A DNA stretch of 64,000 nucleotides from an uncultured Verrucomicrobiota bacterium (GCA_964570325.1 CAZMXS010000011.1:23287-87286), one strand, 5' to 3'; numbered from the stretch's first letter, positions 10,263 through 46,428 are shown. Notes: a model not told the origin generated them from the sequence alone. Numbers and translations: made by a program.

Positions 10263-13011
<2,749 letters not shown>

Positions 13012-13024
13012 CGGTGTGTGATCC

Positions 13025-14881
13025 ATGGATTGCGCCGGGGATCAGTGCGAGCGCGGGAGTAAACCGGCGTCGTCCGGATGGATACGGTTGTTCTGGATCG
13101 CGATTGCCGGTTATTATGCCGCGATTTTCCTGTTGTCCATCAACCGCGTTGGGCTGAACGACAACGACCAGTTTCTGATGTTTCAGGAATTGCAGTTTTG
13201 GAATGCGCGGCTTTTCGGATTCGCAAAGCAGTGGACGCCGGTGATGGTGGGCGGAATTTCCCTGGCAGGCGACCCGCAGGTGCCGCAATGGTCGCTGGGC
13301 ATGGCGCTGGGCTATCTGTTCGGACCGTTTTACGGACTGCGGGTCGCGACCATCCTCTATTTCCTCTTCGGGAGGGTGGGCGCCTGGCGGTCTGCCGGCC
13401 TGATATTCAAACGCGCCGAGCTGCGCGCGTTGGCGGCATCGCTGTTCATCGGGAACGGTTTTTTTGTCTGCCGGCTGGCACATGGGCATATGGACCATAT
13501 CCCCTTCCTGGCGTTGCCGCTGGTGCTGTGGTTCCTGCACCGGTTGACGGATCGCTTGCGTGATCTCAATGCCATGAACCGGTTTGGCGCGAGCCTGGCC
13601 GCGGCGCTTGCGCTCGGCGCGGGATTCAGTGTGATGGCGGATGGCGCGCCGGTCGTGATCATCCATTTCTATTTCTGGGTGGCGGTTTATGCCGTTGTGC
13701 TGGCGGCGGTTAAACGGTCGCCAGCGCCAGTGCTGGTTCCGGCGCTGGGCGGCGCGGCGGCATTGCTGCTGGGCGCAGGCTACCTTTGGCCGATGTTGAA
13801 CGAGCAGCAGGAATTTCCCCGACTGGTGAAGGACACGTTTACCAATCCGCTGTGCCTGTTATGGTTCATGCTGCTCCCCGTGGGCGGACGGGTGATACCC
13901 GCGCCGGCCAACGGTCATGAGTACAGCGTTTACATCGGGCCGGTGCTGGCCGGGCTGATCTGGGTCTATCGGCGCGAGGCGGCCGCGCGGATTCCAGCGG
14001 AAGCGCGCCGTCCGCTGCTGGTCGCGGCCGTTGTCGCCATCTTGCTGGGCATGGGCAGCCTGACCCTGCTGGGGATTCCAAAATGGCTCAGCCCGTTTGA
14101 CCTGTTACGGTCATTGCCCGGCTTTCGCTCCATGAATGTCACGGGCCGCTATTGGGGGTTTCTGGCGCTCCCGCTGTCGCTGTTGGCCGCGGCGGCGATT
14201 CAAGTTTTTCTACAGGATGCCAGCCGAGGCCGCCACGCACACCGGTGGCTGGGCCTGGCGTTGGGACTGCAACTAGCGTTCATGACGGCCTTCCCGTTCC
14301 GGAGCCTGGTGCTTTCGGCCCCGTATCAACCAATTCCATATCGCGGGTTGTTCCCGGCGGATGGCGCGGATATTCGCTATCATGAGGGTGGCGCGCGGAT
14401 TTATCAATACGACTTGATCAGTCCGGTGCAGGGCCTGTTGGACGCCTATAACATGGGTGATTTCATTCATCCGGACATGTTGCCGAATTGTCGCCTGATC
14501 CAGTCGGCGCATGTGGATGGACGGCGCTTCGACACGGATGACTGGCTGGTCGCCCGGTTCACCGACTGGAACCATATTCAGGTGCGACCGGTGAAAAAGC
14601 CGCCCATGGAAGCGCTGGCCGGCTGGGGCACTTTGACCTTGGTGTTCAATCAAGCCTGGCATCGCTATTGGAACTGCGCAGCCGGCCGTGTCCACACGAT
14701 CAACGGACGCAATCTGGCGGTGGACATACCGGTCTCGGCCCTGGCCGCGGGCGCCGTTAATCTGACATTTCACGATTGGGTGAGCGCGCGGGGCACGCGG
14801 GTGACGGCTTGGGCCTGGCCGGTCTGGGCCGTGCTGATGATCCTGCTGACCGTCCCGCTCTGGCGGCGGGCGCCCAGATAA
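13025..14881 (+). CDS. large polytopic membrane protein (possible GT-C-type glycosyltransferase/DUF)
   Basis: 618-aa ORF with at least 12 predicted hydrophobic helices and loop regions. It is immediately downstream of the beta-helix protein. Family is not recognised and the start is uncertain. Confidence 0.5.
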   Translation: MDCAGDQCERGSKPASSGWIRLFWIAIAGYYAAIFLLSINRVGLNDNDQFLMFQELQFWNARLFGFAKQWTPVMVGGISLAGDPQVPQWSLGMALGYLFGPFYGLRVATILYFLFGRVGAWRSAGLIFKRAELRALAASLFIGNGFFVCRLAHGHMDHIPFLALPLVLWFLHRLTDRLRDLNAMNRFGASLAAALALGAGFSVMADGAPVVIIHFYFWVAVYAVVLAAVKRSPAPVLVPALGGAAALLLGAGYLWPMLNEQQEFPRLVKDTFTNPLCLLWFMLLPVGGRVIPAPANGHEYSVYIGPVLAGLIWVYRREAAARIPAEARRPLLVAAVVAILLGMGSLTLLGIPKWLSPFDLLRSLPGFRSMNVTGRYWGFLALPLSLLAAAAIQVFLQDASRGRHAHRWLGLALGLQLAFMTAFPFRSLVLSAPYQPIPYRGLFPADGADIRYHEGGARIYQYDLISPVQGLLDAYNMGDFIHPDMLPNCRLIQSAHVDGRRFDTDDWLVARFTDWNHIQVRPVKKPPMEALAGWGTLTLVFNQAWHRYWNCAAGRVHTINGRNLAVDIPVSALAAGAVNLTFHDWVSARGTRVTAWAWPVWAVLMILLTVPLWRRAPR

Positions 14882-16661: not shown

Positions 16662-16985
16662 TCATTCCTTCCTGACCCACTGCCCGCCGCGCAGAATCCA
16701 CTCGGAAAGACCGGAGAACTCGAAGACTTCCTTGACTGCGCCGCCCAGGTTATAGAGCAGGAACTTGCCGCCGGCCTCGGCGACTTTTTTGCTGAGCGTC
16801 AGCAGGCTCTTGAGGCCGGCGCTGCTGATAAACTGAAGATTGCCCAAGTCAACGATCAGACTTTTCTCGCCGGCGTCGAGCAGGCGCTGGCATTCCTCCT
16901 CGAAGAAGCGCGCGTTTTGGGCGTCCATACGGCCCGAGATCTTCAGCACGGTCACATCGCCAGGGCGTTCGATCTCCAGCCTCAT
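16662..16985 (-). CDS. STAS-domain anti-sigma-factor antagonist (SpoIIAA-like)
   Basis: 107 aa from the ATG at 16985. STAS motif DLGNLQFISSAGLKSLL. ATGA overlap with the upstream small ORF. Confidence 0.7.
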   Translation of the reverse strand: MRLEIERPGDVTVLKISGRMDAQNARFFEEECQRLLDAGEKSLIVDLGNLQFISSAGLKSLLTLSKKVAEAGGKFLLYNLGGAVKEVFEFSGLSEWILRGGQWVRKE

Positions 16986-17269
16986 GGCGCCCCCCGGGCG
17001 CCCGGGCGGATCAGCCGGCGGGCGAGGGCCAGCGGGATGCAGCCGGCGTCGAGCACCGCCGGGAGCCAGGCCCAAAGGTCGAGGTTGGGGGCAGGGATCA
17101 GCAACATGGCGATGCACCCGCATAACCCACCGGCATATGGGACCGGCATGTTCTCCCGTTGCAATCGCCGCATGCGCAGCGCGGCCAGACCATTGGCAAT
17201 CGCGACCCAGATAAAAAACAACGCCAAAGGAACCGCCACCCCCCAGCGCAGATAATCAAGGCCGGTCAT
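16982..17269 (-). CDS. small membrane protein (hypothetical, 2 TM)
   Basis: 95 aa. GGGAGGA SD 8 nt upstream of the ATG at 17269. Translationally coupled to the STAS gene. Confidence 0.45.
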   Translation of the reverse strand: MTGLDYLRWGVAVPLALFFIWVAIANGLAALRMRRLQRENMPVPYAGGLCGCIAMLLIPAPNLDLWAWLPAVLDAGCIPLALARRLIRPGARGAP

Positions 17270-17302: not shown

Positions 17303-17704
17303 TCAGCCCAACACCAGATTCTGCGAGTAGCGGTCGGTGTCGGCAATCAAAAATTCCTCGGTCATTTCCAGGCAATTCTTGGGGCAGACCTCGGTGCATT
17401 GGGCGCAACTGATGCACTGGCCGACGAAAATCCGGATTTTCTTTTCCTCGGGGATCATCTCGATCGCGTGCGCCGGGCAGACCTTGACGCAAAGCGTGCA
17501 GCCGATGCAGGCCGGCTTGGTGTAGCGAATCTTGCCGCGCATTCGAGGAGGGACGGGCACAGGCGGCTGGACGGCCGCCTGGCCGCCTTGCACCTGCGCA
17601 AGGAAGCCGGTCACGGTTTCCGGCAGATGCGCCGCGGGAAAGGGGTTGGTTATGGGCTTGCGCGGCAACTGGTTCAGCAATTCGGGCACCATCGGGAAAC
17701 GCAT
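17303..17704 (-). CDS. mbhN: 2x[4Fe-4S] ferredoxin subunit of group-4 hydrogenase (NuoI/MbhN-like)
   Basis: Two CxxCxxCxxxCP motifs (CIGCTLCVKVCP, CISCAQCTEVCP). GGGAGG SD. Confidence 0.8.
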   Translation of the reverse strand: MRFPMVPELLNQLPRKPITNPFPAAHLPETVTGFLAQVQGGQAAVQPPVPVPPRMRGKIRYTKPACIGCTLCVKVCPAHAIEMIPEEKKIRIFVGQCISCAQCTEVCPKNCLEMTEEFLIADTDRYSQNLVLG

Positions 17705-17707
17705 GGT

Positions 17708-18715
17708 CTACCTCCCGCCGATCAGGGAATCCAGCATCACCAGCCCCAGCCCCACGAGGGCCAGACCGCCGAGATACTTCCAGTACACATCCACCACCTG
17801 CGTGATCCGGAACCGTCCAACCGCGGCGCGGATGAGCGACACGGAGAGGAACATGACCACGAGCAGTTTGACCAGGAAAAACGCCGCATCCAGCACCACC
17901 GCTGGCACGACCCACAGGGGCAGCATGTCGGAGATGCCGTAGGGGATGAAAAGAGCGACCAGCAAGGCGGACATCACGACGGTCTTCACGGCCAGCGCGA
18001 GTTGAAAAAGCGCGAGATTGCGGCCGGAGTATTCCACGAGCAGGCCGCCCGCCAGTTCCGTCTCCGCCTCCGGCGTGTCGAATGGAATCCGGCCCAGCTC
18101 ACCCGGGGCCACGAGCAGCAGGGCGATGAACAGAATGGCGAAGCCGAGCACCCCGCACGGCCCGGACAGCGCCCAGACCGGATGGGCGGCGATCGCGGCA
18201 AGGGCGAAGGGATCGGCCACGCCGGCCTGCCCAAGCTTCCAGCCGATTGCGATCACGACGGCAGCCAGCGGTAGCTCGTAGGAGATCATCGTGACCATTT
18301 CGCGCTGGGCGCCGAGCGTCGCGTAGGGTGAGCCGGCCGCGAACCCGCCGGCGACCATCGCCAGCGCGGGTACCGCCAGCAGGTACATCACCAGCACCAG
18401 ATCCCCGTATCCGCCGAGCGCCGGCGCCAGCGGACCAAGCGGGATGTACAGCAGCAACGAGACGGACGCCGCCAGCGCCGCGACCGGCGCCGCGTTGAAG
18501 AGCCATGGGATCGCGTTGTCGGGGACAATGTTCTGCTTGAGCAGCAGCTTGGCGAGGTCGCGGAACGGCTGGCTCAACGGGGGGCCGATGCGCGCCTGCA
18601 TGCGGGCAACGAGAACCCGGTCAATGCCCAGGCAAACCAAGCCCAGCACCGTGCCCAGCGCGCCGAGCACGGCCGTCCAGAAAACGACCCCGAGGGCGCT
18701 GCCTATCGCGTGCAT
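17708..18715 (-). CDS. mbhM: membrane subunit NuoH/HycD/MbhM-like
   Basis: ATG at 18715 with a GGAGG SD. Polytopic, with NuoH family motifs. Overlaps the large-subunit gene end. Confidence 0.8.
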   Translation of the reverse strand: MHAIGSALGVVFWTAVLGALGTVLGLVCLGIDRVLVARMQARIGPPLSQPFRDLAKLLLKQNIVPDNAIPWLFNAAPVAALAASVSLLLYIPLGPLAPALGGYGDLVLVMYLLAVPALAMVAGGFAAGSPYATLGAQREMVTMISYELPLAAVVIAIGWKLGQAGVADPFALAAIAAHPVWALSGPCGVLGFAILFIALLLVAPGELGRIPFDTPEAETELAGGLLVEYSGRNLALFQLALAVKTVVMSALLVALFIPYGISDMLPLWVVPAVVLDAAFFLVKLLVVMFLSVSLIRAAVGRFRITQVVDVYWKYLGGLALVGLGLVMLDSLIGGR

Positions 18716-19947
18716 GGCTGGAGCCTCCGTGTTTTTTCCACTGAAAGCCGGCGCAATTCGGCCTGCGTCATGAACTCCGGTTGCGCGCCGCGGACCACGG
18801 CAACGCGGTCGGTGCAAGAGATGCAGGGGTCAATTGAGGCGACGATGATCGGGACATCCGCCAGTTGCTCGCCCTCGAGCATCGGGATCCACGACATATA
18901 ATTGCTGTAGGACGAGGCCTTGACCTTCCAGGCCAGCGGGCTGTCCTGCCCGCCCAGCCGCAGGTAGTGCAGCACCTCGCCGCGCGGCGCCTCGTGGCGC
19001 CCGACCGCCTCGCCGCTGGCCTTCTTGACCTTGGCCATCAGCACGGCGATCTTCGGAATCGCCAGGACGGGGCCTTCGGGCAGCCGTTCCAGGCACTGGC
19101 GGATGAGGTCAATGGACTGCCGGATTTCCAGCAGGCGGACAATGATCCGGTCGTACACATCGCCGCGCACTTCGCCGGTGAGCTGGTCGGGGGTGACCGC
19201 GCGCACCTCCAGGTCGGCGTACGCCGCGTAGGGATGATCCTGCCGGACATCCTTGCGCACGCCCGAAGCGCGCGCGACGGGGCCGACCGGGCAGAGCCGC
19301 AAGGCCTCCTCCGGCGTCAGCACGCCGCAGTCGCGGCAGCGCATCTTGATGATCTGGTCGTCCAGGAAGATGGCGGCCAGCCGGTCGAAGTTATCTTCAA
19401 AGTACGCCAGCGACTCGCGGATCCGCGGGAACATATCGGGCGTGATGTCACGTCGGACGCCGCCGATTTGGATGATCGCGTAATGGACGCGGTTGCCGGT
19501 CAGGTATTCCAGCAGGTCCATGACGTTCTCGCGGACGGTCCATGCCAGGTAAAAGGCCGAGTCGAATCCCAGTTCGTGAGCGGCGACGCCGGCCCAGAGC
19601 AGATGCGAGTGAATGCGCTCCAGCTCGCCGACGATCGTGCGCAGGTAGTGGGCGCGCGCCGGCACCTCGATCTGCGCAATCTGCTCCACCGCGCGGCAGA
19701 ATGACAGCGCATGCGTAATCCCGCAGATCCCGCAGATGCGCTCCGCGAGGTAGATGATCTGGATGCAATTGCGCCGCAGCCCCATCCATTCGACGCCGCG
19801 GTGCGCCTTGCCGGGCGCGAAGTCGGCCTTGCGCACCTTCTCCCCGTCCAGTTCGAAGGTGAACATCACCGGCTCTTTCAGCGCCGGGTGCGCCGGGCCG
19901 ATTTGCGCGGTGTAGGTATATGGCTTATGAGTGTTCTGGCTGGCCAT
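18703..19947 (-). CDS. mbhL: [NiFe]-hydrogenase large subunit, group 4 (NuoD/HycE/MbhL-like)
   Basis: N-terminal RICGICGITHA and C-terminal DPCISCTDR Ni-Fe ligand CxxC pairs. There is a ~32-aa tail after the second motif, consistent with endopeptidase processing. Confidence 0.85.
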   Translation of the reverse strand: MASQNTHKPYTYTAQIGPAHPALKEPVMFTFELDGEKVRKADFAPGKAHRGVEWMGLRRNCIQIIYLAERICGICGITHALSFCRAVEQIAQIEVPARAHYLRTIVGELERIHSHLLWAGVAAHELGFDSAFYLAWTVRENVMDLLEYLTGNRVHYAIIQIGGVRRDITPDMFPRIRESLAYFEDNFDRLAAIFLDDQIIKMRCRDCGVLTPEEALRLCPVGPVARASGVRKDVRQDHPYAAYADLEVRAVTPDQLTGEVRGDVYDRIIVRLLEIRQSIDLIRQCLERLPEGPVLAIPKIAVLMAKVKKASGEAVGRHEAPRGEVLHYLRLGGQDSPLAWKVKASSYSNYMSWIPMLEGEQLADVPIIVASIDPCISCTDRVAVVRGAQPEFMTQAELRRLSVEKTRRLQPCTR

Positions 19948-20045
19948 TATGCAACCTGCGATGTAACGGGGTGAATATAGCGGAAGCCACAGCGCCCTGG
20001 CTGCATGGCGGATGTCACGCGCGCCAGCGCTTCAAAGTGGCATTT

Positions 20046-20071
20046 GGGATGACAAAACAGATGGTCATCCC
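20046..20071. repeat. perfect 8-bp inverted repeat (GGGATGAC-N10-GTCATCCC) inside the 190-nt mbhK-mbhL spacer
   Basis: Seen directly at 20046..20053 and 20064..20071. It sits in the only sizeable intergenic gap of the otherwise overlapping mbh operon. Confidence 0.7.
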
Positions 20072-20138
20072 GAGGATGTTCTCCCGGGGAGAGCCGACGA
20101 GAAAGTGTGTCTATGTAGTTTGCGGTTATCACGGATAC

Positions 20139-20726
20139 CTAGGTTGGGTCTGGGGTGGCTGCAGGCGCCACGGCCGCACCGGTCTCTTGCCTGCCCGTGC
20201 GCCACAATTCCTTTACCATCTCCGCCGGCACACCCTTCTCATCTTTTCGCCATGGGAAAACACCGCCCGGGAAATCCTCCGGGAGGAACATCCGGCGATT
20301 GTCGGGGATGCCGGTGACCTGGACGCCGATCATTTCCTGTTTTTCCCGTTCGCTGGTGAGCGCCCCGGGAATGATGTCCGTGATCGTCGGGACCGTCGGA
20401 TCGGTCTTCGGCACGGGGACGGTGAACGTCACCATGATCTCGCGGTGCGGCCGGCTGTGATAGATGAACAGGTGGTAGAGCAGCTCGATCTCCTGGCCCG
20501 TGTCGCAGCATGAAATGACGCCCAGATGCGGGTAGTCAATCCGGACCAGCCACTCCAGCGCCGGCCGCAGCGCCTCGCGGTCCAGCCGGATCCAGACCTG
20601 CCGGCTGACCTTGCGGGAGGCGCCCTCGGCCCACTCGCTCGCGCGCGTGTAGCGCACGGCGCTGCCGCAGGCGCCCTTGATGCCGTCAATGATTGCCTGG
20701 GGCTCCAGATACAGGGGTTCGCTCAT
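20139..20726 (-). CDS. mbhK: NuoC/30-kDa-like subunit (MbhK)
   Basis: NuoC family fold. ATGA overlap with mbhJ. Confidence 0.8.
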   Translation of the reverse strand: MSEPLYLEPQAIIDGIKGACGSAVRYTRASEWAEGASRKVSRQVWIRLDREALRPALEWLVRIDYPHLGVISCCDTGQEIELLYHLFIYHSRPHREIMVTFTVPVPKTDPTVPTITDIIPGALTSEREKQEMIGVQVTGIPDNRRMFLPEDFPGGVFPWRKDEKGVPAEMVKELWRTGRQETGAAVAPAATPDPT

Positions 20727-21154
20727 GACACCGCCTCTGCCTGTTCCAGCTTGAGCAGCGCCTTGACGACGCCGTCAATGATCGCCTCCGGCCGCGGCGG
20801 GCAGCCTGGCACATGGACGTCCACGGGGATGATCTGGTCCACCGGCCCGACAAGGTTGTAGGAGTCGTAGAAGGTGCCCCCGGAGATGCCGCAGACACCG
20901 ACACAGACGACCAGCTTGGGATCGGGCATCTGCTCGTAGACACGGCGCAGGCGCGGCTCCATTTTCCGCGTCACCGGCCCGGTTACCAGCAGCAGATCGG
21001 CGTGGCGGGGGGAGCCGACGAGCTTGATGCCGAACCGTTCGAGGTCATAGCGCGGCGTGACCGACGCGACCAGCTCGATTTCACAGCCGTTGCACGAGCC
21101 GGCATTGAACAAAAACGCCCACAGCGAACGGCCCAATGTCTGCGCGATCTTCAT
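20723..21154 (-). CDS. mbhJ: hydrogenase small subunit NuoB/MbhJ-like (proximal [4Fe-4S])
   Basis: ATG at 21154. Cys ligands in GSCNGCEIE, CVGVCGISGG and GCPPRPE. Confidence 0.85.
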   Translation of the reverse strand: MKIAQTLGRSLWAFLFNAGSCNGCEIELVASVTPRYDLERFGIKLVGSPRHADLLLVTGPVTRKMEPRLRRVYEQMPDPKLVVCVGVCGISGGTFYDSYNLVGPVDQIIPVDVHVPGCPPRPEAIIDGVVKALLKLEQAEAVS

Positions 21155-21501
21155 GCCAGCCACCCCACGATGAACATCAGCGCCGCCACGCCGACAAACC
21201 ACAGCACATAATCCACCGGCTCGCCGGAATGCAGCGGCGCCAACCGCCGGTAATAGCCGCGCAGCGACTCCAAGAAGCCCCAGTACATGTTGGAGGCGGG
21301 GATATGCCCGCGCCCGGCCGGCGGTTCGTCGTTGCCGGAAATGAACGGTTTGGCCTGGCCCGTGCCCGGCCGGTAATCCGCGCGCCCGCGGCGGCGGAAC
21401 CAGACCGCCAACAGCGCGGCTACGAGAAACGCGATCAGCCAGGCCGGCGCGTTCCAGGCGCCCGCGCCGGTTTCCAAGGTCCAGGCCAGCGGCAGCGGCA
21501 T
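21151..21501 (-). CDS. mbhI: small membrane subunit MbhI-like
   Basis: 116 aa with 2 TM. Position and size match MbhI. ATGA overlap with mbhJ. Confidence 0.5.
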   Translation of the reverse strand: MPLPLAWTLETGAGAWNAPAWLIAFLVAALLAVWFRRRGRADYRPGTGQAKPFISGNDEPPAGRGHIPASNMYWGFLESLRGYYRRLAPLHSGEPVDYVLWFVGVAALMFIVGWLA

Positions 21502-21502
21502 G

Positions 21503-23074
21503 TCACAGCCCTCCCACGATGGCGGCCATATAGCGCGCCTGCCCGAGCAGCGCGTCCACCGCCGGCAGGATCAGCCGCTCGACCGCCGCCTGCGGAAAGA
21601 GACCAAACAGAATGACGACGCCCGCCAGCACACCCATGCCCAGCAGCATCGGCCGGGGCGCCTCGCCGGCAGTGGCGAACGCGGGTTGGGGCGGGCCCAT
21701 GAAGACGGAATGGAATACCTTGACGAATGAGGCCAGCGTCAGGATGCTGACGACCATGGCGATCACCGCCAGGAAGGGGTTGAACCGGAAGACCGACTCG
21801 TAGAGCATCAACTTCGAGGCGAACCCGTTGAACGGCGGGATGCCGGCGATGGCCAGCGCGCCAATGATGAAGAAGATCATCGTCCACGTCATTTTGTGGC
21901 CCAGTCCGCCGAGCCGGTTCAAGTTGCGCGTGCCGCACCGGTAGAAGATCACGCCGGCCGTCAGGAACAGCAAGCCCTTGTACATCGCGTGGTTGATGAT
22001 GTGGAAAATGCCGCCGGCCATGGCCATCCGGCCGAACGCCTCCAGCCGCGCAGCGTCGCCCAACACCGCGAGGCCGACCCCCACGCCCAGCAGCATGTAG
22101 CCGGTCTGAGACACGGCGTGGTAGGCCATCAGGCGTTTGATGTCTTTTTGCGGAATGGCCATCGTGACACCGATGAACATCGAGAGCACGCCGAGGATAA
22201 TCACGAACCAGCCGACGGAGACCGCATTGAGCGCGTGGCCGTAGAGCGAGAACAACACCCGGAAAAGGCCGTAAAGGCTGGCCTGGCTGGACACGACCAG
22301 CAGTGCCGTCACCGATGAGGGCGCGGTGGTGTACGCATCCGGCGTCCAGAAGTGCATCGGCACCGCGCCGCATTTCATCGCTAAAGGCACGATCAGCAGG
22401 ACCAGCGCGATCTTGTCAAGATTGGTGGATTGGATCCGGCGCGCGAGTTCCGCGAGATTCAAGGCATTGTACTGCCCGTACAGGATGCCGACGGCCAGCA
22501 GCACAAACAATCCCGCCAGGGTGCTCAGCAGCGCATACTTGAAGCCGGCCTCGACGGCCACGCCTTTGTCCACGCGGTACGCCACCAACGCCGAACCGGC
22601 CAGCGAGGTGATCTCAAAGAAAACAAAGAAGTTAAACAGGTCGCCGGTGCAGACGAGCCCGTAAATGCCGGCAACCAGCAGGAACAACAACGCGTAAAAG
22701 CCTTCCAGCCCCGATTGCCGCGATTCGGCTGCCAGCGAGTAGATCGTGATCGCCCACGAAACGAGCGCGACAATGGTCGCCATCAGCGCGCCCAGCGCGT
22801 CCACCTCGAACAAAATCCGGACGGGGATGCCGCCGGCATCCGCGGGCAAAGCCAGCCGCGGCGCGGCGGCCCCGAAAACGTAGACGGCCGGTCCGCTGTG
22901 GAACACCCGCCACGCCAGGACCAGCGCGGTCAGCGAGGTCAGGGTCATGAACAGGCCGACCCAGAACGCGCGCAGCCGCGGGTTTCGGGCGGCGAGCAGC
23001 GGCGTCGCGAATGCCGCGAACAACGGCAGCGCAACTACCAGGGCCGGGGTGTGGGTTATGAAAAATCCGCTCAT
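21503..23074 (-). CDS. mbhH: NuoL/MrpD-like antiporter-type membrane subunit (MbhH)
   Basis: 523 aa. Complex I L/M/N-type and MrpD family. Confidence 0.85.
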   Translation of the reverse strand: MSGFFITHTPALVVALPLFAAFATPLLAARNPRLRAFWVGLFMTLTSLTALVLAWRVFHSGPAVYVFGAAAPRLALPADAGGIPVRILFEVDALGALMATIVALVSWAITIYSLAAESRQSGLEGFYALLFLLVAGIYGLVCTGDLFNFFVFFEITSLAGSALVAYRVDKGVAVEAGFKYALLSTLAGLFVLLAVGILYGQYNALNLAELARRIQSTNLDKIALVLLIVPLAMKCGAVPMHFWTPDAYTTAPSSVTALLVVSSQASLYGLFRVLFSLYGHALNAVSVGWFVIILGVLSMFIGVTMAIPQKDIKRLMAYHAVSQTGYMLLGVGVGLAVLGDAARLEAFGRMAMAGGIFHIINHAMYKGLLFLTAGVIFYRCGTRNLNRLGGLGHKMTWTMIFFIIGALAIAGIPPFNGFASKLMLYESVFRFNPFLAVIAMVVSILTLASFVKVFHSVFMGPPQPAFATAGEAPRPMLLGMGVLAGVVILFGLFPQAAVERLILPAVDALLGQARYMAAIVGGL

Positions 23075-23075
23075 C

Positions 23076-23432
23076 CTAACCTTTCAATCGCGTCATCTTC
23101 CGCACGTTGGTCGTTCCGTAGCAGCGGTAGATGACCATCACAAAAGAGAGCATCATTGCGCTGGTTGCGACGCCGATGACAATCGAGGTCAGCGTCAGCG
23201 CCTGCACCGTCGGCAGCACCATCGGGGCCCCCGGCGCGTTGGTGAAAATCGGCGCCTCGCCGCCGGCGCGATAGCCGAGCGTGACCAGGAACAGGTTGAC
23301 GGCCGACTCGACCAGGCTCAATCCCATCAGCACCTTGACAGCATTGCGTTTCAACAGCATGACCGCCACGCCGGCCAGGGCGATGAGCACGACGGCCAGC
23401 AGCGGCAGGTTGATGGTCAGATGGGTCAGCAT
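23076..23432 (-). CDS. mbhG: MrpC/NuoK-like subunit (MbhG)
   Basis: 118 aa with 3 TM. MnhC/NuoK family. Confidence 0.75.
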   Translation of the reverse strand: MLTHLTINLPLLAVVLIALAGVAVMLLKRNAVKVLMGLSLVESAVNLFLVTLGYRAGGEAPIFTNAPGAPMVLPTVQALTLTSIVIGVATSAMMLSFVMVIYRCYGTTNVRKMTRLKG

Positions 23433-23501
23433 GGGGTGTTCAAATTACAATTATCAAATGGCGATCGGTCCGTCCGCGCCGTTGGAATGGTGGCGTTCAC
23501 C

Positions 23502-23969
23502 TTACCGGTCGGACTCCTTGATTCCGGACAGCATATATAAAAGAATTACGGACAACCCGCCCAGCACCTCGACCCCAACGGCCAGATTCATGACCGGCAG
23601 GATGCCGGCGGTCCAGAGGTCGCCCGGGTTCGGCCCGTAAGCGACCGGGCGCCCAAAAAGCCCGCCGGTGCCGGCCAGCCAGTTCCGGAAGAAGGTGGCG
23701 CCCTTGAGCAGCCCGCCCGCGCCTGCGCCAATGAACAGCAGCAAGCCCAACGACTCGCACAGCTTCAGGATATCCTTCTTCAGCCGGGTGGTGATGTCGT
23801 CATAACGCCGCGCGGCAATCAGCAGCGCCGCGCCGGTGGCCATCACCGCGCCGCCCTGAAACCCGCCACCGGGTGTCAGATGGCCGTGGGCCACCACGTA
23901 GAAGCCGAAGGCCAGACAGAACGGATAAAAAATGTCGGCCGTCGTGCCGACGATCTTAGTCATTTTCAT
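23502..23969 (-). CDS. mbhF: MrpB/MnhB-like subunit (MbhF)
   Basis: [11 protein letters not shown] motif characteristic of the MnhB domain. Confidence 0.75.
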
Positions 23970-24240
23970 AGTCTTCGCCCGCGAACCGCTTGCGGAACAT
24001 CACGCCGACCCCGAGCACGGCGGTGAACAACACCGTCGCCTCGCCGAGCGTGTCGAACCCGCGGTAGTCAAACACCACCGCCGTCACGATATTATTGGCC
24101 CCGCATTGCTCCTGGCCGTGCCGGATGAAGTAATCGTCCATGTCGGCGGTCCGCGGCTGCCCGTAGGGGAAGCCGGTCGCCAGATAAAGCAGGGCGCCGG
24201 CCAGAACTGCAAGCATGGTCAGGGTGAGCGCGGTTTTCAT
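23956..24240 (-). CDS. mbhE: MbhE-like small membrane subunit (MnhB N-terminal-like)
   Basis: Trimmed to the ATG at 24240 ([12 protein letters not shown]...). [19 protein letters not shown] motif. Confidence 0.6.
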
Positions 24241-24491
24241 TCGTCCGCCTCCTCGCGGCGGCGCGTGCCGCGGATCGCAATGATAAAGATCGCTGTTGTC
24301 AGGCCGGCGCCGATGCCCGCCTCGGCGATCGCCACGTCCGGCGCCTGCAGGATATAGAATTCCAGCGAAAGCAACAGGCTGAACGCCGCCAGGGCGACCG
24401 CCGCTCCGAGCAGATCCTTGAAGAAGAATACCGAGCCGGCGCTGGCCACCAGCCCGACCAGGACCAGGATATGCATCAGATCGGCCATCAC
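24237..24491 (-). CDS. mbhD: MbhD-like subunit (DUF4040, MrpA C-terminal-like)
   Basis: 84 aa with 3 TM. ATGA overlap. Confidence 0.6.
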
Positions 24492-24847
24492 TTGCCCTCC
24501 GTCTCCGCCCGCCGGTCCACAACGGCCGGGCTTGGCCGCGCGCCGCTGCGGTGCGCGGCGCGCGCGATCGCGTGGGCGCCGGTTGCGTTCGTGATCGCCA
24601 GCACGATTACGGCGATTACGGTGTGGATTGCCAGCGCCAGGTACTGGCCATCGCCGGACTGGACGAAGCGATAAACTCCGAAAATGATGACGGAGAGCGA
24701 GGTGAAGATTGAGCCGAATGTCGTCGCCTTGGTGTCCGCGTGCAGGCGCGTATAGACATCCGGGAACCGCAGGATGCCGATGACGCCGAGCGTGTTGAAG
24801 GCGATGCCGATCAGCAGGCAGACGGCGATGACCAGGGTCAGCAGCAT
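24488..24847 (-). CDS. mbhC: MrpG/MnhG-like subunit (MbhC)
   Basis: ATG at 24847. [26 protein letters not shown] matches the MnhG signature. Confidence 0.7.
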
Positions 24848-24848
24848 G

Positions 24849-25106
24849 TCACATCTCCCCTCCGAGGTACTTGGCGATGTACAGCGTGCCGACGAACGAG
24901 AGCAGGGCGTAGACGATGGCCACGTCAATGAAGATGATCTGCCGGAACACCACGCCCAGTACGATCATCGCGGCGACGATCAACGTGTTGATGGCATCGA
25001 GCGCGACGACGCGATCAGCCGGCGTCGGCCCCTTGAACAGCCGGACCAGCGCCAGCAACATCAGCGCGGCGAGCATGCAGACCGTGATGATCCAGAGGGT
25101 TGTCAC
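24849..25106 (-). CDS. mbhB: MrpF/MnhF-like subunit (MbhB)
   Basis: 85 aa with 3 TM. MnhF family. Confidence 0.7.
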   Translation of the reverse strand: MTTLWIITVCMLAALMLLALVRLFKGPTPADRVVALDAINTLIVAAMIVLGVVFRQIIFIDVAIVYALLSFVGTLYIAKYLGGEM

Positions 25107-25633
25107 TCCGCGATCCTCCGGATCGTCGCCGGGCAGTTATGGAAACTGAACAGCGACTCGGCCGTGACGGCCGGCGCCTGTTCCACGCCGGGCGGAACAT
25201 TGATCATGTGGACAAACAGGTCATTGGTGGATTCGTCAATGTCCACGGTCAGCGTGCCGGGCGTCAGGGTGATCGAGTTGGCCAGCATCAGCGTGCCCAG
25301 ATCGGTGGTCATGCCGGACTTCACGCGGACGATGCCGGGCCGGATCTTCAGCGTGATCACCCGGAAGGCGACGTCCAGGTTGGCCTTGGCCATCTCGACA
25401 AAAAACGGACCGAGCGCATAACCGATTCCCAGGAGCAGGCGGAGTGGGTTGAAGATCCGTCCGGCGGGGCGGGCGCAGAAATAGCGGCGAGCGATCAACG
25501 CGGTGACGGCGCCGAAAAACAGGCCGGCGACAAGTTCCTCGCGCGACCACAGGCGCAGCACCGCGCCCGAACCGGCGGTCAGCAGCCAGTAGACAGCCGT
25601 CGAGAAAACAAATGTGACAACAAACGAAATCAT
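25103..25633 (-). CDS. mbhA: MrpE/MnhE-like subunit (MbhA)
   Basis: 176 aa. MnhE family. First gene of the operon. Confidence 0.7.
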   Translation of the reverse strand: MISFVVTFVFSTAVYWLLTAGSGAVLRLWSREELVAGLFFGAVTALIARRYFCARPAGRIFNPLRLLLGIGYALGPFFVEMAKANLDVAFRVITLKIRPGIVRVKSGMTTDLGTLMLANSITLTPGTLTVDIDESTNDLFVHMINVPPGVEQAPAVTAESLFSFHNCPATIRRIAE

Positions 25634-42754: not shown

Positions 42755-42990
42755 GACAAGCAGATCGCGCGGCGCGCGGACAGGCGGCGGGCTGCATCGG
42801 CTTGTTCGCGCTTGGCAGGATCGTTTGGGTCGCGGTATAAAACAGGGCCAATCAAAGAAGCGTATGGATTGAATGGCGATGGCCAATACAACAGGGCGCA
42901 ACCCGGGGAAATCCGCGGGATACTGCATTATGAAACCCGTGAGCCGCGCCAGCCGCTGATCTTCGCGGCCGGTCGCGCCGCCGTCGGGTT

Positions 42991-44019
42991 TTGACTATTG
43001 CCATGTTGGAGGATGTTAAGCTGATGGCCCAAAACGACAACCAAGCCGCGGTGGCGGCTGTGCCGCGCGTGGAGTGGGAGGCGCTGCTGCGGTGCATGCT
43101 GCGCGCGCGCGCAATTGACGAGCGCCTGATCCGGCTCTACCACCAGGGCCGGATTTTCGGCGGCGTCTACACGGGGGTTGGGCAGGAGGGGATCGGCGCG
43201 GCGACCGCGCGCGCCGGCGGCCCGGCCGACCTGTTCGCCCCGTGCATCCGGGACATGACCGTCCACCTGGCGCGCGGCGAATCCGTGCTCAACATCTTCC
43301 GGCAGTTCCTCGGGCGCGTGACCGGGCCGACGCGCGGGCGCGACGGCAACGTCCACTACGGCAACCTGGACCATGGGGTGTACGCGATGATCTCGCATCT
43401 GGGCGCGATGTTGCCGGTCGTGACCGGCGCCGTGATGGCCCGCCGCCGGCGCGGCGCGGATAGCGTCGGCGTGGCTTACATTGGCGACGGCGCGACCAGC
43501 ACCGGCGATTTTCACGAGGCGGTCAATTTCGCGGCGGTGTTCGACGTGCCGGTGATCTTCGTGATCGAGAACAACAAGTTCGCCTATTCCACCCCCAATG
43601 CGCGCCAGTATCGCTGTCGGCGGCTGGTCGAGCGCGCCGCCGGGTATGGCATCGAGGGGATTGCGGCCGATGGCAACCACCCCGTCGAACTGTATCTCCT
43701 GACCCGCCAGTTGATGGCGCGGCTGCGCGCGGAACCGCGGCCGGTGCTGCTGGAGTGCGACACGATGCGTATGCGCGGACACGGCGAGCACGATGATTAT
43801 GCCTATGTGCCCCGGGAGTTGCTCGAACAATACGCCGCCCGCGACCCGATTCGCGTGGCCGCCCGCGCGCTGGCTGATGCCGGTGTGCTGGGCCCGGAGA
43901 CCGTCGCGGCGCTCGAGCGCGAGGTGCAGGAGGAGATTGACCGCGCTTACCACCAGGCGCTGGCGGAACCCGCGCCCGGCGCGGAAACGCTGCTGGAGGG
44001 GGTTTATGCCGACGGCTGA
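42991..44019 (+). CDS. pdhA: 2-oxoacid (pyruvate/acetoin) dehydrogenase E1 component alpha subunit (ThDP-binding)
   Basis: ThDP motif GDGATSTGDFHEAVNFAAVFDVPVIFVIENN. Confidence 0.85.
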   Translation: MTIAMLEDVKLMAQNDNQAAVAAVPRVEWEALLRCMLRARAIDERLIRLYHQGRIFGGVYTGVGQEGIGAATARAGGPADLFAPCIRDMTVHLARGESVLNIFRQFLGRVTGPTRGRDGNVHYGNLDHGVYAMISHLGAMLPVVTGAVMARRRRGADSVGVAYIGDGATSTGDFHEAVNFAAVFDVPVIFVIENNKFAYSTPNARQYRCRRLVERAAGYGIEGIAADGNHPVELYLLTRQLMARLRAEPRPVLLECDTMRMRGHGEHDDYAYVPRELLEQYAARDPIRVAARALADAGVLGPETVAALEREVQEEIDRAYHQALAEPAPGAETLLEGVYADG

Positions 44020-44989
44020 AATCACCTACCTGGAGGCCATCCGCCAGGGATTGCGGCGGTTGCTGAAGGAAGATCCGAACGTCCTGCTGTTCGGCGAGGA
44101 CATCGGCGCGTTCGGCGGCGCGTTCAAGGTCACGCTCGGTCTGCAGCAGGAGTTTGGCGCCGACCGCGTGTTCGACACGCCGATCAGCGAATCGGCCATC
44201 CTCGGCGCCGCGATTGGCATGGCCACGCAGGGGTTGCGCCCGGTGGTGGAGCTGCAGTTTGTGGATTTCGGCATGACGGCGCTCCACCAGATCCTGAACA
44301 ACGCCGGCACCACGCATTACCGGACGGGCGTGGCGGTGCCGATGACCGTGCGCGCGCCATGCGGCGGCGGGTTCGGCGGCGGGCCGTTCCATTCCGAGGA
44401 ACTCGAGGCGCTGTTCTGCCATATGCCCGGCATCAAGGTGGTCTATCCCGCGTTCCCGTCGGACGCGCGCGCGCTGATCTATTCCGCCGTCCGGGATCCG
44501 AACCCGGTGATCTTCCTGGAGAACAAGTACCTGTATCGGCACGTGAAGGAGCTGATGTCGGAGCGGTTCGATCCCGTGACGCTGGGCCTGGCGCGCGTCT
44601 GCCGCGTCGGCCGCGACGCGGTGATCCTTACCTACGGCGCGATGGTGCATGAGGCGTTGCGCGCGGCCGAGCGCGTCTCGGCCGACGAGGGCTACGAGGC
44701 GATGGTGGTGGATATGCGCACGCTCAAGCCCTACGACGCCGAGACGGTCCTGGCGGCGGTCGCGGCGACCAACCGCGTGCTGATCGTGCACGAGGGCTGG
44801 CGCACCGGCGGGTTCGGCGCGGAGCTGGCGGCGCTCGTGGCCGAGCGCGCCTTTCACCTGTTGGATGCGCCGGTGCGGCGGGTTGCCGCGCCCGATTGTC
44901 CCGTGCCGTTTGCGCCCGATTTGGAAAAGGTATACCGCCCCTCGCACGAGGCGATCGGCGAGGCGCTGATCGAACTGATCGAGTATTGA
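44006..44989 (+). CDS. pdhB: 2-oxoacid dehydrogenase E1 component beta subunit
   Basis: ATG at 44006 (MPTAEITYLEAIRQGL...) overlapping the E1alpha end. Transketolase-like Pyr and C-terminal domains. Confidence 0.9.
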   Translation: MPTAEITYLEAIRQGLRRLLKEDPNVLLFGEDIGAFGGAFKVTLGLQQEFGADRVFDTPISESAILGAAIGMATQGLRPVVELQFVDFGMTALHQILNNAGTTHYRTGVAVPMTVRAPCGGGFGGGPFHSEELEALFCHMPGIKVVYPAFPSDARALIYSAVRDPNPVIFLENKYLYRHVKELMSERFDPVTLGLARVCRVGRDAVILTYGAMVHEALRAAERVSADEGYEAMVVDMRTLKPYDAETVLAAVAATNRVLIVHEGWRTGGFGAELAALVAERAFHLLDAPVRRVAAPDCPVPFAPDLEKVYRPSHEAIGEALIELIEY

Positions 44990-45004
44990 GGCAAGGATAG
45001 CGCC

Positions 45005-46288
45005 ATGAAACAGACGCAGGTCGTGATGCCGCAGATGGGCCAGAGCGTGGCGGAGGGCACCATTATCCGGTGGAAGAAGAAAGTGGGGGATTCGGTCGAG
45101 GCGGACGAGGTGCTGCTTGAAGTGGAGACCGATAAGACGACGGTGGACGTGGAAAGTCCCGCCGCCGGCCGCCTGGCCAGTTGCCTGAAGCAGGCGGGCG
45201 AGATTGCCGCCGCCGGCGAGGTGATTGGCGTGATCGAGGGTGAGGGGGAGGAACCGCCCGCTGCGCCCGCGGATCAGCCGCACGCCGCCGGCGGTAAACA
45301 GGAGCAGATCCGCGTCTCGACGGCGTCGCTTTCGTTCGGCTTTAACAGCGCCGCGCCGTTGCCCGACATTGATCGCGATCGCTATTCACCCTATGTGCTG
45401 CGGCTGGCGATGCTGAACAACGTCACCATCCAGGAGTTGGAGGCCATCCAGGGCACCGGCCGCCACGGGCGCGTGACCAAGAACGACATTCTCCAGTACC
45501 TGGCCCGCCGCCCCGTCGCCTCGGTCTCAATGGAGCAGTTGACCGGCAAGGAGGAGCTTTCGCCGCAGGACCTGGCCGCGCTGGGCCGGGTGGTGCCGAT
45601 GACTACGGTGCGCCGGACAATCGCCGATCACATGGTCCAGTCGCTCCGCACCAGCGCGCATGTGACCATGGTCCACGCGGTGGACCTGACGCATGTGGTC
45701 AACCTGCGCCGGCGGGTGAAGGAGGAGTTTGAAAAACGCTTCGCCGCGCGCATGACCTACACCGGTGTGCTGCTGTTTGTCACCGCCCGGGTGCTGAAGG
45801 ACTTCCCGACGATCAACGCCTCCGTTCACGGCACGAACCTGATCCTGCGCAACGAGATCAATATCGGCTGCGCCGTCGCCCTGCCGGATGAAAGCCTCGT
45901 GGTGCCGGTGGTCCGCCACGCGGATAAGAAGAGCTTCCCCGAGATCGCCCGCGACCTGGACCGCCTGATCGGTTTGGCCCGGGGCAAGGCCCTGCGCCGC
46001 GAGGACGTGGACAGCGGGACGTTCACCATCTCCAACTTCGGCTCATTCGGGAGCATCATTGGTACGCCGCTGATCAACCAGCCGCAGGTCGCGATCCTCG
46101 GCATGGGCGCGGTCTTCGAGACGCCGGTGGTGTATGAGCGGAAAATCCAGGTTCGCGACCGGCTCTACTTGAGTTTCTCGTTCGACCATCGCGTGATTGA
46201 CGGCGCCATGGGCGGACGGTTTCTCAACGCCATCCAGACCGCCACCGAGGCGCTGACCGAGGACGATTTGAACCTGGGTTCGTTGTAG
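45005..46288 (+). CDS. pdhC: dihydrolipoamide acyltransferase E2 component (lipoyl domain plus catalytic domain)
   Basis: Lipoyl-lysine motif EVETDKTTVDVESP. Catalytic DHRVIDGA. Confidence 0.9.
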   Translation: MKQTQVVMPQMGQSVAEGTIIRWKKKVGDSVEADEVLLEVETDKTTVDVESPAAGRLASCLKQAGEIAAAGEVIGVIEGEGEEPPAAPADQPHAAGGKQEQIRVSTASLSFGFNSAAPLPDIDRDRYSPYVLRLAMLNNVTIQELEAIQGTGRHGRVTKNDILQYLARRPVASVSMEQLTGKEELSPQDLAALGRVVPMTTVRRTIADHMVQSLRTSAHVTMVHAVDLTHVVNLRRRVKEEFEKRFAARMTYTGVLLFVTARVLKDFPTINASVHGTNLILRNEINIGCAVALPDESLVVPVVRHADKKSFPEIARDLDRLIGLARGKALRREDVDSGTFTISNFGSFGSIIGTPLINQPQVAILGMGAVFETPVVYERKIQVRDRLYLSFSFDHRVIDGAMGGRFLNAIQTATEALTEDDLNLGSL

Positions 46289-46428
46289 AAGCGCAAAGTC
46301 GGCGCTCCAGCCTGAGCGGCGTCGCCTCCTTTTGTGGGACTGGCCGACGAGGCCGGCCGCGCTCGCCCGCTCAACCGGGAACTCTCGCCTTGACGCCCGC
46401 CAATTTGCTCTGCTAGTTTCCGCGCCCC

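Follow-up and report, generated by a model that had tools for sequence, protein, structure and literature searches.

Does the hydrogenase-like gene cluster of an uncultured bacterium encode a true [NiFe]-hydrogenase, or one of the respiratory complexes that resemble it? The question is raised by positions 17303-25633 of a window, the whole stretch of 64,000 nucleotides analysed here, from an uncultured Verrucomicrobiota bacterium (GCA_964570325.1 CAZMXS010000011.1:23287-87286), in which 14 genes on the minus strand correspond to mbhA-N, the genes for the membrane-bound hydrogenase (Mbh) of Pyrococcus furiosus. With a probability of roughly 0.85, the locus is predicted to code for a complete Mbh-type, ferredoxin-coupled, Mrp-linked group 4 respiratory [NiFe]-hydrogenase in an uncultured bacterium of the Planctomycetes-Verrucomicrobia-Chlamydiae (PVC) superphylum. 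The gene content and order, all the metal ligands and most of the ion-path residues are those of Mbh, which is also the solved structure most like the predicted proteins.

Each of the 14 proteins was searched against all PDB chains, including chains A-N of 6CFW, the cryo-electron microscopy structure of P. furiosus Mbh. The predicted large subunit, MbhL, has 48 % amino acid sequence identity with P. furiosus MbhL and matched it with 390 bits (6cfw_L, E-value 1.7e-115), compared with 242 bits for Escherichia coli HycE (1.4e-70), 200 bits for Nqo4 of Thermus complex I (4.7e-58) and 156 bits for Mbs (1.1e-44). The motifs RICGICGITH and SIDPCISCTDR align with Cys68, Cys71, His75, Asp372, Cys374, Cys377 and Arg380 of the P. 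furiosus protein, and the corresponding Cys72, Cys75, His79, Asp373, Cys375, Cys378 and Arg381 of the window protein are all present. So is Glu25, the equivalent of the proton-donor Glu21 of P. furiosus MbhL (PMC8679088), which is invariant across about 70 relatives. The Ni-Fe motifs are invariant in 70 aligned relatives, bar one sequence that is gapped at the C-terminal motif. Beyond the cleavage Arg of DPCISCTDR, MbhL continues for 33 residues; the deposited chain L of 6CFW stops at the matching Arg, and the tail is comparable to the 32-residue assembly peptide which HycI cuts off E. coli HycE after Arg537 (PMC7654741). The cysteines of the proximal [4Fe-4S] cluster of MbhJ (Cys21, Cys24, Cys88 and Cys118) are invariant in the clade (about 70 relatives), and MbhN has two CxxCxxCxxxCP motifs.

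These ligands separate the locus from its non-hydrogenase relatives. Mbs has kept two of the Ni-Fe cysteines and three of those that bind the cluster (PMC8165549), whereas MbhL and MbhJ of the window keep four and four, which excludes an enzyme of the Mbx/Mbs type. Against complex I or NDH-1 stand the presence of the Ni-Fe cysteines, the single antiporter-like subunit and the match to Nqo4, which reaches only the 200 bits given above. A reading made earlier from the sequence alone (the sequence-only reading) had pointed to the CxxC pairs (RICGICG..H and DPCISC) and the C-terminal tail and had called the enzyme a true hydrogenase, not a Mbx- or complex-I-like derivative; the alignment with P. 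furiosus MbhL, the eight cysteines and the 390 bits against 156 bear this out.

The same search and the Pfam and NCBIfam families define the operon as follows.

25103..25633, minus strand: mbhA, MrpE-like, 176 aa (Pfam MNHE 3e-31; best PDB match 6cfw_A 6.5e-33)
24849..25106, minus strand: mbhB, MrpF-like, 85 aa (Pfam MrpF_PhaF; 6cfw_B ~1e-19)
24488..24847, minus strand: mbhC, MrpG-like, 119 aa (Pfam PhaG_MnhG; 6cfw_C 4e-30)
24237..24488, minus strand: mbhD, DUF4040, 83 aa (Pfam MbhD 6e-18; 6cfw_D 3e-17)
23956..24240, minus strand: mbhE, 94 aa (Pfam MbhE 1.4e-11; 6cfw_E 1.8e-15)
23502..23969, minus strand: mbhF, MrpB-like, 155 aa (Pfam MnhB; 6cfw_F 1e-21)
23076..23432, minus strand: mbhG, MrpC/NuoK-like, 118 aa (Pfam Oxidored_q2; 6cfw_G 1e-19, 6u8y_G 2e-22)
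21503..23074, minus strand: mbhH, MrpD/NuoL-like antiporter subunit, 523 aa (6cfw_H 2.9e-108)
21151..21501, minus strand: mbhI, small membrane subunit, 116 aa (NCBIfam MbhI equivalog; 6cfw_I 7e-5)
20723..21154, minus strand: mbhJ, NuoB-like small subunit, 143 aa (6cfw_J 2.4e-55)
20139..20726, minus strand: mbhK, NuoC-like, 195 aa (Pfam Complex1_30kDa; 6cfw_K 3e-28)
18703..19947, minus strand: mbhL, [NiFe] large subunit, 414 aa (6cfw_L 1.7e-115)
17708..18715, minus strand: mbhM, NuoH-like, 335 aa (6cfw_M 5e-51)
17303..17704, minus strand: mbhN, 2x[4Fe-4S] protein, 133 aa (Pfam Fer4 families; 6cfw_N 1.3e-24)

All 14 open reading frames (ORFs) are intact, and most of their stops and starts overlap or nearly abut. 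The order of families is MNHE, MrpF, MnhG, MbhD (DUF4040), MbhE, MnhB, NuoK-like/MrpC, MrpD-like antiporter, MbhI, NuoB, NuoC, NiFe large subunit/NuoD, NuoH and the 2x[4Fe-4S] protein, that is, the Mrp-like module A-I first and the hydrogenase module J-N after it, as indicated by Pfam, NCBIfam and the 6CFW chain matches. The same 14 genes were called by JGI in an identical public contig, Ga0255811_11760714 (87 kb, metagenome 3300023207), which is also found in JGI 3300021561 and 3300023203 and of which a fragment is present in NCBI GCA_030154545.1. The GC content at third codon positions (GC3) is 0.81-0.91 across all 14 genes, which thus look like real, expressed-type coding sequence. The coordinates and gene list of the operon given in the sequence-only reading were exact, and the gene-for-gene colinearity with P. 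furiosus mbhA-N that it claimed was found in full, every protein matching the chain of 6CFW that bears its letter.

That chain was the best or near-best structural homologue of every subunit; the cases in which it was not the best are MbhG, which scored slightly higher with Mbs chain G, and the pair MbhE and MbhF, which scored higher with the fused Mbs chain E. MbhH has 40 % identity with P. furiosus MbhH and reached 735 bits with NCBIfam PRK08376 (cut-off 662); MbhI, which has no Pfam match, reached 117 bits with its NCBIfam equivalog (cut-off 95), and MbhN 147 bits with PRK08348 (cut-off 124). Of the matching families, MbhD and MbhE of Pfam and the MbhI equivalog are specific to Mbh. A scan of the operon for promoters and terminators gave only weak consensus matches, near chance level. 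Rfam had zero matches over the whole window, and a search for tRNA genes, a possible sign of a mobile island, found none.

The contig carries bacterial markers, namely ffh, rpsP, trmD, rplS, ruvA, def, MlaE and a RND efflux system with an outer-membrane factor. Ffh is closest to that of "Lentisphaerae bacterium GWF2_57_35" (77 % identity), followed by Verrucomicrobiota and Kiritimatiellia metagenome-assembled genomes (MAGs). MbhL is also closest to GWF2_57_35 (80 %), followed by Verrucomicrobiota/Kiritimatiellia MAGs (71-78 %) and then by Methanomicrobiales (63-67 %). Judged from these matches, the host is a PVC bacterium near GWF2_57_35 and Kiritimatiellia, which bears out the relatives in Kiritimatiellia and Verrucomicrobiota that the sequence-only reading had pointed to, and the agreement of Ffh and MbhL in their closest relative makes the operon look vertically inherited in the PVC lineage. 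Thousands of homologues exist, many of the close MbhL homologues carry the JGI product label 'membrane-bound hydrogenase subunit alpha', and some 50 loci retrieved from PVC MAGs and Methanomicrobiales keep the full A-N order. A neighbour-joining tree of MbhL, built with P. furiosus MbhL (group 4d) and HycE (group 4a, outgroup) as references, placed the PVC clade as sister to the Methanomicrobiales clade, and both together as sister to P. furiosus MbhL. Mbh has already been described in Methanomicrobiales (PMC2686161), Mrp-Mbh is known from the bacterial groups Elusimicrobia, Synergistota, Firmicutes and Thermotogae (10.1101/765248, PMC10867827, PMC8115248), and its inter-domain transfer has been reported (PMC8115248).

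Other arrangements were seen among the related loci. Two Kiritimatiellia MAG loci (L063:10001-12675 and L049:1161-3817) have mbhLMN with no mbhA-K detectable upstream, the latter on a contig of just 3.9 kb, and in a MAG labelled 'Proteobacteria' (L009:2682-12660) hypA-F adjoin mbhJKLMN, the Mrp module being absent. A hydrogenase module detached from the Mrp module thus occurs as well.

The residues checked in the membrane arm were those singled out as functional in a simulation study of Mbh (PMC8679088). The equivalent of MbhM Glu141 is kept, as are Glu143, Lys225, His346, His350, Lys354 and Lys409 of P. furiosus MbhH (Glu154, Lys234, His358, His362, Lys366 and Lys421 in the window), Asp35, Asn38 and Thr39 of the Na+ N-site in MbhB, Thr42 and Thr86 of MbhC, and MbhD Glu69 (Glu56 in the window). 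Substitutions were found at MbhC Pro88 (Ala), at MbhG Asp37 (Glu) and His41 (Asn), both as in Mbs, and at MbhL Glu20 (Lys). In MbhH, Lys256 of transmembrane helix 8 (TM8), which belongs to the lateral proton path, is replaced by Gln264 in the segment VVSSQASLYG, which has a 2-residue deletion; in pairwise HMMER alignments Gln264 pairs with the TM8 lysine of MrpD, of two NuoN proteins and of NdhB. The lysine is missing in all 55 clade members. A survey of the nearest 50%-identity MbhH-like representatives in a library of 1.84 billion representative proteins (104 analysed) found neither Lys nor His at the TM8 site in 36, where the residues vary (Gln, Met, Leu, Ala and Thr). The idea that the change is an oddity of the window locus was therefore rejected. 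On this survey it is a common sub-family variant, maybe not defining for the Mbh type.

Together, the substitutions in MbhH, MbhG and MbhC suggest that ion stoichiometry or specificity may differ from that of the P. furiosus enzyme. That PVC and Methanomicrobiales Mbh form a mechanistically distinct sub-type, whose operon was transferred whole between methanogenic archaea and PVC bacteria, is a tentative proposal which we consider rather unlikely. At the MbhD Glu69 position, a buried carboxylate of the Na+ site, Gln is present in 39 of the 45 Methanomicrobiales copies and Glu in all PVC copies, a split that may reflect a difference in ion coupling between the sister clades.

In the proposed mechanism, reduced ferredoxin would pass electrons to the two clusters of MbhN, on to the single cluster of MbhJ and from there to the Ni-Fe site of MbhL, where protons supplied via Glu25 and Cys375 would be reduced to H2. 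The energy released would move protons through MbhM and MbhH and would also power Na+/H+ exchange through the Mrp-like MbhA-G module, giving an ion gradient usable by an ATP synthase. Ferredoxin as donor, net H2 evolution, Na+ coupling and the central role in fermentation proposed in the sequence-only reading are what we infer. Phosphofructokinase and acetate kinase genes lie near the operon in some of the relatives from Kiritimatiellia and Verrucomicrobiota MAGs, an arrangement that fits a fermentative role.

Several observations weigh against the assignment to a ferredoxin-coupled, H2-evolving Mbh. As the sequence-only reading had stated for hyp genes in the window, no hyp or hycI gene was found there or in a further 6 kb of the contig, past the window start, either among the Pfam matches of the called genes or by tblastn with E. 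coli HypA-F and HycI as queries (E<=1e-3); maturation would presumably depend on Hyp proteins and a HycI-type protease whose genes lie in other parts of the genome. The window has no gene for pyruvate:ferredoxin oxidoreductase (PFOR) or ferredoxin, and its sole 2-oxoacid enzyme is a NAD-type E1/E2 dehydrogenase complex. MbhH Gln264, the MbhG Asn in place of His41 and the MbhC Ala in place of Pro88 depart from the P. furiosus ion paths. Among solved structures Mbh is by far the best match of the large subunit, but the HydDB label may be either 4d or 4g, and a bacterial cluster of Mbh and Mrp genes, at least one, was placed in group 4g before (PMC9324843). Finally, the nearest non-bacterial clade consists of hydrogenotrophic Methanomicrobiales, with 63-67 % identity and full synteny.

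This last point bears on the alternative that survives best, that the same enzyme would run in reverse, taking up H2 and spending the ion gradient on the reduction of ferredoxin. Such reverse working has been put forward for the Eha, Ech and Mbh enzymes of Methanomicrobiales, with a suggested role of Mbh in heterodisulfide reduction (PMC2686161), physiological reversibility is known for group 4 enzymes such as Ech (HydDB table, PMC5037454), and the absence of a PFOR gene from the window would agree with it. However, the host is a PVC bacterium, and the phosphofructokinase and acetate kinase genes near the operon of some relatives form a fermentative context. Both O-site carboxylates are also retained in the PVC clade, but at MbhD Glu69 most of the methanogen copies carry Gln, a hint of different coupling in the two clades. 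H2 uptake is accordingly judged improbable, although less so than the alternatives below.

Group 4b of HydDB, the Mrp-linked hydrogenases that respire formate or CO, and group 4a, the formate hydrogenlyases, could be considered in view of the 242 bits between MbhL and HycE and the occurrence of Mrp linkage in group 4b too (PMC5037454). However, Pfam lists of the called genes contain no formate dehydrogenase or carbon monoxide dehydrogenase (CODH) gene, either nearby or on the annotated contig, which also lacks a HycB-type partner. The gene order is that of mbhA-N and not of hyc, and MbhL lacks the N-terminal NuoC fusion of HycE, the alignment beginning at HycE residue 194. The absence of linked formate dehydrogenase and CODH genes, the separate mbhK and mbhL and the presence of the Mrp module make both groups very unlikely. 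The least probable alternative, a sulfane-sulfur reductase of the Mbx/Mbs type or another non-hydrogenase complex-I-like enzyme, has in its favour the Mrp module in common, the Mbs-like Glu...Asn motif of MbhG and its 83 bits with Mbs chain G against 74 with Mbh, but it is effectively refuted by the cysteine pattern described above, and the scores of MbhL and of MbhH (367 bits with Mbh, 163 with Mbs) and the cleavable tail of MbhL also argue against it.

The predicted Mbh operon is compact apart from one gap.

19948..20138, minus strand: mbhK-mbhL spacer, 191 bp, probably non-coding

The GC content of the spacer is 0.55, compared with about 0.65 around it, and a homology search found its sequence to be unique. 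In most relatives the same spacer is 0-38 bp, with 109 bp in locus L003 and 486 bp in L006. A 61-aa ORF (19947-20132) fills the spacer, and its stop overlaps the ATG of mbhL. It was considered as a hidden 15th gene with translational coupling and rejected, since its GC3 is 0.53 compared with 0.81-0.91 in the mbh genes, it has no Pfam match and no homology elsewhere, and relatives lack the gap or have a different one. A structured RNA was also rejected (no Rfam match, and a fold z-score of -2.2, barely better than shuffles). The spacer is probably lineage-specific non-coding sequence; a weak sigma-70-like match lies at 19975-19946, and an internal promoter, though possible, is unsupported. In the Kiritimatiellae MAG STCSWMC_75 (L006:9515-10000), the 486 bp between mbhK and mbhL are an AT-rich insert which is bounded by inverted TTCAATATTCAATATTCAA repeats and contains a 130-aa ORF of the 23S rRNA-intervening-sequence protein family (23S_rRNA_IVP, PF05635, 7e-16). 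It looks like a small inserted element within the operon.

Upstream of the operon lie DctPQM, a universal stress protein and a DUF6268 outer-membrane protein, and downstream a 95-aa membrane ORF, a STAS protein and an epimerase. The flanks were compared with those of the related loci for a clue to the electron donor, and none were in common.

16662..17269, minus strand: 95-aa membrane ORF and STAS-domain gene, starting 33 bp past mbhN, with a mutual ATGA overlap

The two genes have a GC3 of 0.79-0.80. The STAS protein is anti-sigma-antagonist-like (Pfam 3.5e-20), and the membrane ORF has no family match. The pair lies outside the conserved operon and was found in none of the related loci; it is possibly co-transcribed with the mbh genes. 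In about 40 Methanomicrobiales loci (L010-L080, at ~12700-13400 in locus coordinates) a gene for a hycI-type protease is convergent just past mbhN, and such a gene follows mbhN in none of the PVC loci, the window included. The NAD-type 2-oxoacid dehydrogenase genes of the window form an E1-alpha/E1-beta/E2 cluster at ~42930-46290 (L082:4748-8033).

For the uncultured PVC bacterium the locus adds a ferredoxin-linked, ion-translocating H2 module, as predicted from sequence, which helps the metabolic reconstruction of this lineage as a producer, possibly a consumer, of H2 in anoxic communities. To hydrogenase biology it brings nothing new, since the family has been documented before, in bacteria too, and so have its transfers between domains (PMC5037454, PMC8115248, 10.1101/765248, PMC10867827), and the operon is a correct but ordinary instance of the large, well-described Mbh family. 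Only the loss of the MbhH TM8 lysine throughout the sub-family might interest specialists; if this loss and that of MbhG His41 matter, ion stoichiometry or specificity would be unlike that of the Pyrococcus enzyme.

Among known systems, P. furiosus MbhA-N (6CFW), the prototype of HydDB group 4d, has the identical 14 subunits in identical order, and shares the Ni-Fe and Fe-S ligands, the proton-donor Glu, the cleavage Arg with its tail and most of the proposed H+/Na+ path residues. The window differs from it in its bacterial, probably mesophilic host with 64 % GC, in sequence (48 % identity in MbhL, 40 % in MbhH) and in the substitutions MbhH Lys256 to Gln, MbhG Asp37 to Glu and His41 to Asn, MbhC Pro88 to Ala and MbhL Glu20 to Lys. 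Mbs/Mbx (6U8Y) shares with the window the Mrp-like module, the NuoB/C/D/H/I-like subunits and the Glu...Asn motif of subunit G, but Mbs lacks two Ni-Fe cysteines and one cluster cysteine (PMC8165549), all of which the window has. The Mbh of Methanomicrobiales (Methanospirillum, Methanolinea, Methanoregula and Methanoculleus; PMC2686161) is syntenic over the 14 genes, with 63-67 % identity in MbhL, and has the MbhH Gln, MbhG Asn and MbhC Ala in common with the window; it differs in its archaeal hosts, the hycI-type gene past mbhN, the mostly Gln-containing MbhD and the proposed uptake of H2. Closest are the Mbh operons of PVC MAGs (GWF2_57_35, Verrucomicrobiota and Kiritimatiellia), in which the A-N order is identical and MbhL has 71-80 % identity; their flanks are not in common, and the 191-bp spacer and the pair of membrane ORF and STAS gene are the window's own.

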